DNA from: Escherichia coli
GTDB taxonomy: Bacteria; Pseudomonadota; Gammaproteobacteria; Enterobacterales; Enterobacteriaceae
Length of the DNA: 494 nucleotides
Direction: 5' to 3' (one strand)
Assembly: GCF_003334385.1 (NCBI RefSeq)
Contig: NZ_QOWN01000174.1
How positions within the stretch are numbered: the first letter of the stretch is position 1; the number at the start of each line of letters is the position of its first letter. Below, one piece after another: positions 1-494 of this stretch. A program made the translations under genes and the position numbers. The notes under the pieces were generated by a model. That model saw only the letters and a program-made list of their open reading frames with translations, was not told the DNA's origin and ran no database searches.

Positions 1-494
1 TTTGCAGGTGTACGATAAGACCAGGCGGCTTCGTAAAGCAGACGTCTCAGTTCGCTGTTTCCAACTTTTGTTATTCCCCTGGGACGAATGCTGTTTCCAC
101 TGGAATATTCCCCTGGAACCAGTCCCAGAAAAGCCATGAGTTGTTTGGGACTGGAAAATCGTGAAAAATCACCCAGTTCAGCAACCAGGGTTATTGCGGT
201 TAGCTGACCAACACCTTTAAGGGCCTGTAACTGGCAGACCAGATTGCACAGAGACCACTCAGGTAACAGGCGGGATATTTCCTGGTCGAGTTGAAGTATG
301 CGATCTTCAATCTGCTCCAGACTCTGACAATAGTGTTGAAAAGCAATCTGTTGAGATGGCTGACTAAATGATTGATTGGCTAACCAGGTTCGATGTTTGC
401 CGGTCCAGTGCTTCCCTGCATAACGTTTGTCTGTTCGCAATAGCATGCTCAGAATTCGCTGTCGGGCAACTCTGCTGTCTCGTTTAGCTGCTGC
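1..494 (-). CDS. IS110-family transposase (DEDD-type recombinase), internal fragment; N-terminus lies beyond position 494 and C-terminus beyond position 1
   Basis: Hand translation of the reverse complement starting at position 494 gives 164 sense codons with no stop (codons occupy 494 down to 3; positions 2-1 start the next codon). Family motifs recalled from memory are present: helix-hairpin-helix-like LKGVGQLTAITLVAELGDFSRF (approx 156-221), FLGLVPGEYSSGNSIRPRGITKVGNSELRRLLYEAAW (approx 21-131) with the conserved Ser-Gly (second Ser of YSSG, codon at 99-101), and a heptad-like linker SLEQIEDRILQLDQEISRLL (approx 261-320). All three plus-strand frames contain stops (for example frame 1 TAA at 16-18, frame 2 TGA at 137-139, frame 3 TGA at 162-164). 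No database search was run. Confidence 0.9.
1..494 (-). mobile_element. Internal portion of an IS110-family insertion sequence; element ends and insertion site not in window
   Basis: Inferred from the transposase CDS: IS110-family elements are small and consist mostly of the single recombinase gene. No element boundary, target site or flanking host sequence is visible, so the extent and intactness of the element cannot be assessed. Confidence 0.75.

Follow-up and report, generated by a model that had tools for sequence, protein, structure and literature searches.

An 11-nt direct repeat beside the predicted catalytic-serine codon of the ISEc45 transposase gene very probably reflects chance codon usage in a single allele

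The window analyzed here, a 494-nt stretch of Escherichia coli DNA, carries an exact 11-nt direct repeat, which is very probably a codon-choice coincidence in a single allele of the known ISEc45 transposase gene, without any function of its own. The sequence TATTCCCCTGG is located at 72–82 and 106–116 on the plus strand, the starts of the two copies lying 34 nt apart, and a preliminary description of this DNA had given the repeat, its coordinates, and its spacing correctly in every detail. The pair is the longest exact direct repeat of the window, no third copy was found elsewhere in the 494 nt on either strand, and if one mismatch is allowed, the repeat can be extended to 14 nt (72–85, TATTCCCCTGGGAC versus 106–119, TATTCCCCTGGAAC). 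The whole window is a single open frame on the minus strand (Table 1), in which copy B is shifted by one base in register compared with copy A. The assignment of the copies to different frames, contributing to P-R-G-I and P-G-E-Y, was thereby confirmed, and so was the conclusion that the pair is not a protein-level repeat, since both the frames and the encoded peptides differ and the spacing is 34 nt. Codon inspection showed that the protein dictates four of the 11 matching positions, while the other seven are synonymous choices that agree with each other. The repeat would have come about where two different peptide motifs, P-G-E-Y and (P)-R-G-I, each conserved individually, flank the loop of the predicted catalytic S270. 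Being encoded one base out of register, these peptides would force identity at 4 of 11 positions, and the remaining seven would match through the codons used by this allele (CCA, GGG, GAA; CCC, AGG, GGA, ATA). Selection would keep the protein sequence and leave the nucleotide repeat to drift freely.

The window proved to be 100% identical to part of the gene of WP_000555380.1, an "IS110-like element ISEc45 family transposase" present in E. coli NCTC86 and in many other genomes. Related copies of 90–99% identity were detected in 1,279 of 5,426 complete E. coli genomes, and ISEc45-related copies are also found on Escherichia and Klebsiella plasmids. In total, the E. coli collection has roughly 1,600–1,750 places with an ISEc45-family sequence. 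The transposase gene of the identical copy in NCTC86 (L001) encodes 377 aa. Its full product contains a DEDD_Tnp_IS110 domain (PF01548, RuvC-like, residues 10–158, E = 3.6e-15), which lies outside the window, and a Transposase_20 domain (E = 1.6e-23 with the full protein and 4e-24 with the translation of the window), and it matches the NCBIfam model NF033542, "IS110 family RNA-guided transposase", with 279.9 bits versus a cut-off of 140. The two domains, the score above the NCBIfam cut-off, and the aligned catalytic Ser-Gly place the protein in the IS110 family.

Table 1. Features of the 494-nt window (positions refer to the window)
Feature	Position	Strand	Source
ISEc45 IS110-like RNA-guided transposase gene, internal part, residues 139–302 of 377	3..494	−	
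Transposase_20 (PF02371, "Tnp") domain, residues 227–298	15..230	−	Pfam
Repeat copy A, CCA GGG GAA TA(T) = P265-G266-E267-Y268 (first two bases of Y268), in frame	106..116	−	
Repeat copy B, (C)CC AGG GGA ATA = last two bases of P276, R277-G278-I279	72..82	−	
Second repeat, copy 1, TGGAAACAGC within S-G-N-S-I, residues 270–274	90..99	−	
Second repeat, copy 2, TGGAAACAGC within V-G-N-S-E, residues 282–286	54..63	−	
Codon AGT of S270, predicted catalytic serine, followed by G271	99..101	−	Alignment with IS621 only
Inverted repeat, 9-bp perfect stem CCAGTCCCA / TGGGACTGG, codons S-P-K-Q-L-M-A-F-L-G-L-V (SPKQLMAFLGLV)	119..154	.	

The ends of the element (L001:2024 and 3468) were set by comparison with an uninterrupted IS66-type sequence, L004, giving a reconstructed length of ~1,445 bp, of which 60 nt upstream and 251 nt downstream of tnp are non-coding. 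The terminal sequences are GATGGTATGACC... and ...AAAGGTCATAAG, and subterminal inverted repeats, ATGACCTTT / AAAGGTCAT, are situated 6 bp from the left end (GATGGT-ATGACCTTT...) and 3 bp from the right end (...AAAGGTCAT-AAG). The insertion point was mapped for L001 only and lies at the target junction between GAAGAGATA and ATTTTTTCTTCC (between 1653 and 1654 of the empty site L004); target duplication was not evident in comparison with this empty site, which is related, not identical. All five full ISEc45 copies examined with their flanks (L001 and L046–L049) were located inside IS66-family transposase genes. Thus, the target of ISEc45 appears to be a site within this type of gene, and such IS-within-IS targeting fits a sequence-specific, RNA-guided insertion. 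In IS1111-type elements a longer non-coding region follows tnp and encodes the guide "seekRNA", and the inverted repeats are offset by ~6–7 bp at the left and 3 bp at the right end (PMC11187229). By its layout, ISEc45 is an IS1111-type element, as both the downstream non-coding region and the subterminal inverted repeats are present, and the 251-nt non-coding region (L001:2024–2274, minus strand) is presumably its seekRNA region. A search of the element against Rfam gave no match at E ≤ 1, and when its 3′ non-coding region was compared with the target by exact words only, a single shared 6-mer was seen. A literature search for ISEc45 yielded resistome and mobilome surveys only and no mechanistic work. 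A near-identical copy of the E. coli element was also found on an actinobacterial MAG contig (L005; JAIJJM010000012.1, "MAG: Collinsella sp."), where its presence is likely due to binning contamination or recent transfer.

A phmmer comparison with proteins of solved structure matched the IS621 recombinase (8wt6, E = 8e-10), whose Tnp domain aligned with residues 204–296 of the ISEc45 protein. In this alignment, Y-S-S270-G271 of ISEc45 stands opposite Y-E-S-G of IS621, and S270-G271 falls on S243-G244 of the chain, that is, on native S241-G242, as the chain numbering is shifted by +2 relative to the native one, judged from D11. S241 of IS621 is the covalent nucleophile that forms a 5′-phosphoserine link in recombination, and G242 is conserved (PMC11208158). 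On the strength of this alignment, S270 is predicted to be the catalytic serine of ISEc45. The repeat copies, corresponding to codons 265–268 and 276–279, are on either side of the predicted catalytic loop, which agrees with the statement of the preliminary description that the cluster falls in the most conserved part of the gene: it flanks the predicted catalytic-serine codon within the Transposase_20 domain. The conservation at this site is that of the protein and not of the nucleotide repeat.

This distinction emerged from the comparison of alleles and homologues, which we regard as the decisive test against a functional repeat. The comparison included 39 homologous loci, one genome per species (46–100% amino-acid identity), two plasmid homologues, and seven further ISEc45 copies taken from the 90–97% identity bands. 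Conservation of the peptide motif PGE(Y/H)SSG...R(P)RGITK is widespread in these sequences but does not extend to the nucleotide repeat. The eight ISEc45 copies of 92–97% identity that were sampled, a small number out of roughly 1,100 non-identical records, all have TATTCCTCTGG at 72–82 and TATTCACCTGG at 106–116, so that the copies match at 9 of 11 positions; a variant, L050, has TATTCACCTTG in place of TATTCACCTGG. Where intact, the 92–97% copies encode the same peptide across the repeat region, and each repeat copy has its own synonymous change (AGG>AGA and GGG>GGT), neither of which is compensated. L005 is 99.6% identical to the window and lost the pair by one synonymous C>T change (CCC>CCT). 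The two sites agree at 9/11 positions in L002 and at 8/11 in L007 (both ~70% identical), while the thirty-odd more distant homologues match at 0–6 of 11, even those in which PGE(Y/H)...RPRGIT is kept. Thus, the pair is missing from close homologues, and neither the conservation nor the co-variation expected of a functional DNA repeat was found: close alleles break it by independent synonymous changes and distant homologues do not have it.

Within E. coli, the exact 65-nt stretch of the window was found in 133 of about 1,260–1,330 records containing this gene region (~10%). The commoner ISEc45 allele, WP_000555401.1, does not have the perfect repeat and occurs intact at several different chromosomal and plasmid sites, consequently, the element evidently does not need the repeat. 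Comparing the allele of the window with the major lineage, the third-codon positions differ at 4 of 17 in the repeat units versus 14–18 of 164 across the window, which indicates that the repeat is under no constraint; the synonymous sites in the repeat diverge at least as fast as the rest of the gene. The outgroups share the bases of the window allele at 78 and 111, two of the three lineage differences that matter. The older ISEc45 sequence may thus have had the perfect pair, which persisted for some time and was later lost by ordinary synonymous drift, and this would also explain why every lineage difference lowers the similarity of the copies.

The frequency of such repeats was estimated against several backgrounds. 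The preliminary description had put the chance expectation at about 0.03 per window, and dinucleotide shuffling gave a mean of 0.025: an exact direct repeat of at least 11 nt occurred in 2.4% of 3,000 shuffles, and one of the same length with copies no more than 60 nt apart in 0.6% of 3,000. When the protein was kept and its synonymous codons were resampled or permuted, 2.7–4.3% of the sequences held a repeat of at least 11 nt somewhere. Real DNA was represented by 247 windows of 494 nt from other fetched loci, with close copies of ISEc45 excluded; a direct repeat of at least 11 nt was present in 23 of them (9.3%), and copies lay within 60 nt of each other in nine (3.6%). At precisely these two peptide sites, all 11 bases coincided in no more than 0.05% of codon resamplings.

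The 11-mer pair is accompanied by a second, likewise exact direct repeat, which the preliminary description did not mention: GCTGTTTCCA (sense TGGAAACAGC) is located at 54–63 and 90–99 with a spacing of 36, in frame, both of its copies encoding G-N-S. Since it is co-linear with the 11-mer, the segments 53–85 and 89–119 can be aligned as a gapped quasi-duplication. Its score of 27 was reached by none of 400 dinucleotide shuffles and by one of 400 synonymous permutations. Such a quasi-duplication is uncommon for one window (~0.25%), yet it is expected many times in a genome-wide scan, and we discounted the low single-window probability because the metric was picked post hoc and many windows had been scanned to arrive at this one. 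The major ISEc45 lineage has the second repeat in degraded form. That the two 33-nt segments were made more alike by a mutational process, either template switching between neighbouring quasi-repeats or the CCWGG-favouring very-short-patch repair of E. coli, and not by pure chance, is very improbable in our judgment; were it true, the repeat would be the footprint of a host mutational bias on a mobile element and not a functional site.

The possibility that the two segments of ~33 nt share ancestry, through an internal tandem duplication or through templated homogenization (quasi-repeat correction or micro-conversion) within the ISEc45 lineage, we consider very improbable. In its favour, the two exact repeats (11 nt at a spacing of 34 and 10 nt at a spacing of 36) are co-linear, and the gapped self-alignment score is exceeded in at most one of 400 null sequences. 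The lineage differences that affect the similarity (78, 90, and 111 of the window) all leave the window allele the more self-similar one, but any change in a perfect repeat lowers the similarity automatically, the outgroups suggest that the window bases at 78 and 111 are ancestral, making loss the direction of change, and a single conversion tract could not account for them, as the differences fall in both segments and the 6–8 nt separating the repeat blocks are still unlike and differ in length by 2 nt. Moreover, homologues from multiple phyla have the same length and motif order without nucleotide similarity between the segments, and each of the two segments is a conserved part of the Pfam domain in its own right. 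A duplication would thus predate the family, and its DNA identity could not have survived, therefore, an ancient internal duplication was excluded by the comparison of homologues.

The window is also rich in Dcm (CCWGG) sites. Six of them (at 21, 78, 112, 185, 281, and 384) were counted versus 1.08 in dinucleotide shuffles, none of 200 shuffles reaching six, and each copy of the 11-mer contains one. The entire coding sequence (L001:2275–3408) has nine versus 3.76 under synonymous-codon permutation (p = 0.0025, ~2.4-fold), and the homologous stretch of a 71%-identical Enterobacter plasmid gene has one. Very-short-patch repair in E. coli has a known bias favouring CCWGG, and the enrichment could reflect this bias. 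The change by which L005 lost the pair, at the site homologous to position 81 of the window, is CCAGG>CTAGG in the sense strand and affects the inner cytosine of a Dcm site, which is the position where deamination of 5-methylcytosine is expected.

Exact 11-nt direct repeats located 34 nt apart are a possible substrate for replication slippage, by which the transposase could be switched off through a 34-bp out-of-frame deletion. According to the coordinates, this deletion would take out the catalytic-serine codon and shift the frame. The junction of the deletion would be TGTTTCCAACTTTTGTTATTCCCCTGGAACCAGTCCCAGAAAA and that of the reciprocal duplication GCTGTTTCCACTGGAATATTCCCCTGGGACGAATGCTGTTTCC. 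As a 126-nt junction query was not discriminating (intact copies matched it in two pieces), a 43-nt junction-specific probe was used instead, and it had no match in the 5,426 complete E. coli genomes, a search of limited power with only ~150 places carrying the perfect repeat. The inactivated copies seen bear other lesions, such as a 4-bp deletion in L047, one of the eight sampled copies of 92–97% identity, and slippage as the meaning of the repeat is highly improbable. The deletion of L047 is in repeat copy A (TATTC----GG, at the site homologous to 111–114 of the window) and puts the transposase out of frame immediately ahead of the catalytic-serine codon; the annotation lists the gene as a frameshifted pseudogene. 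Two plasmid matches with spans of 490 nt may have this lesion, too.

It is extremely unlikely that copy B acts as a translational pause or a +1 recoding site, where a slip on CCC-A would lead into the frame of copy A, CCA GGG GAA TAA. The sequence CCC-AGG-GGA-ATA is a run of codons rare in E. coli, and +1 shifts are generally favoured where slippage on CCC-N takes place next to a rare AGG codon. Read in +1, copy B gives P-G-E-stop, and AGG is used for only two of the 32 arginines of the transposase gene, but in this gene of 46.5% G+C, ATA accounts for 7 of 24 Ile codons and GGA for 8 of 22 Gly codons, which makes both common, hence the run is not exceptional when judged by the codon usage of the gene. 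The Arg codon is AGA in the major ISEc45 allele and CGG in L002, and with the ATC ACN of distant homologues a +1 slip would meet no stop. Stimulatory signals were not found and the RNA structure is ordinary. If such a slip did take place, termination would yield a truncated protein without its C-terminal part; this product would be devoid of the conserved residues that follow the catalytic loop. Thus, the idea of a rare-codon-driven +1 frameshift was supported neither by the codon usage of the gene itself nor by conservation.

The element belongs to an RNA-guided transposase family, and the repeat copies are clustered with partial palindromes, TTCCNCTGGAA, at 74–84, 95–105, and 108–118. Nevertheless, a role of the 11-mer as a recognition sequence for the transposase or a guide RNA (seekRNA or bridge RNA), for example as an internal pseudo-target or donor-like site, is scarcely credible. 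The motif (CCAGGGGAATA) has no copy with up to two mismatches in the element ends, in the 60-nt 5′ and 251-nt 3′ non-coding regions, or in the target flanks, nor was the 11-mer found again at this stringency in the whole 5.5-kb locus. At up to three mismatches, the scan of ends, non-coding regions, and flanks yielded two chance matches only. Words common to the repeat region and the 3′ non-coding region are at most 7 nt long, and the sequences of the target junction and of the element ends are unrelated to the motif. The preliminary description had proposed to look for the 11-mer at the element ends, and the outcome of this search is negative. Further copies at relevant places, which a functional DNA repeat should have, are therefore lacking, and neither the commoner ISEc45 allele nor any other homologue has the pair intact, by which the recognition-site reading is largely refuted. 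The preliminary description had considered the repeat most likely a product of chance and had named its absence from close homologues and from the element ends as the outcome that speaks against a functional reading; this is the outcome obtained, and the chance origin is supported.

Structural and signal readings were dismissed as well. The inverted repeat at 119–154, noted earlier as adjoining the pair, is present, but its stem contains a mismatch in the major ISEc45 lineage and it is absent in L002 and L007. The RNA fold of the sense strand at 45–170 is no better than that of shuffles (z = −0.59), which, together with the non-conserved 119–154 hairpin, argues against the repeat cluster folding into a structure of its own as RNA or DNA. 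An internal promoter or terminator was likewise rejected, as no promoter-like site was found in the window and the one weak terminator-like site, at 172–189, is away from the repeat.

Considering these results, we infer that the repeat does nothing. The small remaining probability is shared by an origin through mutational bias or templating, by slippage, by recoding, and by a recognition site, none of which received positive support. The analysis removes a candidate, that is, a hidden recognition site or guide-RNA target in the ISEc45 transposase gene. Since the gene, its family, and the catalytic loop are already known and annotated, the result matters little otherwise; in recoding or engineering the ISEc45 transposase, the nucleotide repeat may be dropped, as the commoner natural allele is without it.

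Among the known systems, IS621 shares the two-domain family of ISEc45, consisting of the RuvC-like DEDD and the Tnp domains, and its catalytic loop, Y-x-S-G, can be aligned with that of ISEc45. However, the two are distant, the alignment being significant in the Tnp region only, and IS621 is an IS110-type element in which the guide RNA region precedes the gene, in contrast to ISEc45, where the long non-coding region is downstream and subterminal inverted repeats are present. In layout, ISEc45 resembles ISEc11 and other IS1111-family seekRNA elements (PMC11187229): the length of ISEc11 is 1,443 bp versus ~1,445 bp for ISEc45, and the ISEc11-like elements and ISEc45 are alike in having a downstream non-coding region, subterminal inverted repeats, and insertion into a specific sequence with no evident duplication, although ISEc45 itself is absent from that paper. 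Compared with the known ISEc45, the window represents the same element without any difference, and the repeat is peculiar to one allele, that of the WP_000555380.1 type. As regards the repeat itself, the 11-mer pair resembles the short direct repeats that arise by chance in coding DNA, being out of frame and not conserved, and it is slightly unusual among ordinary chance repeats in having a second, co-linear 10-nt repeat beside it.
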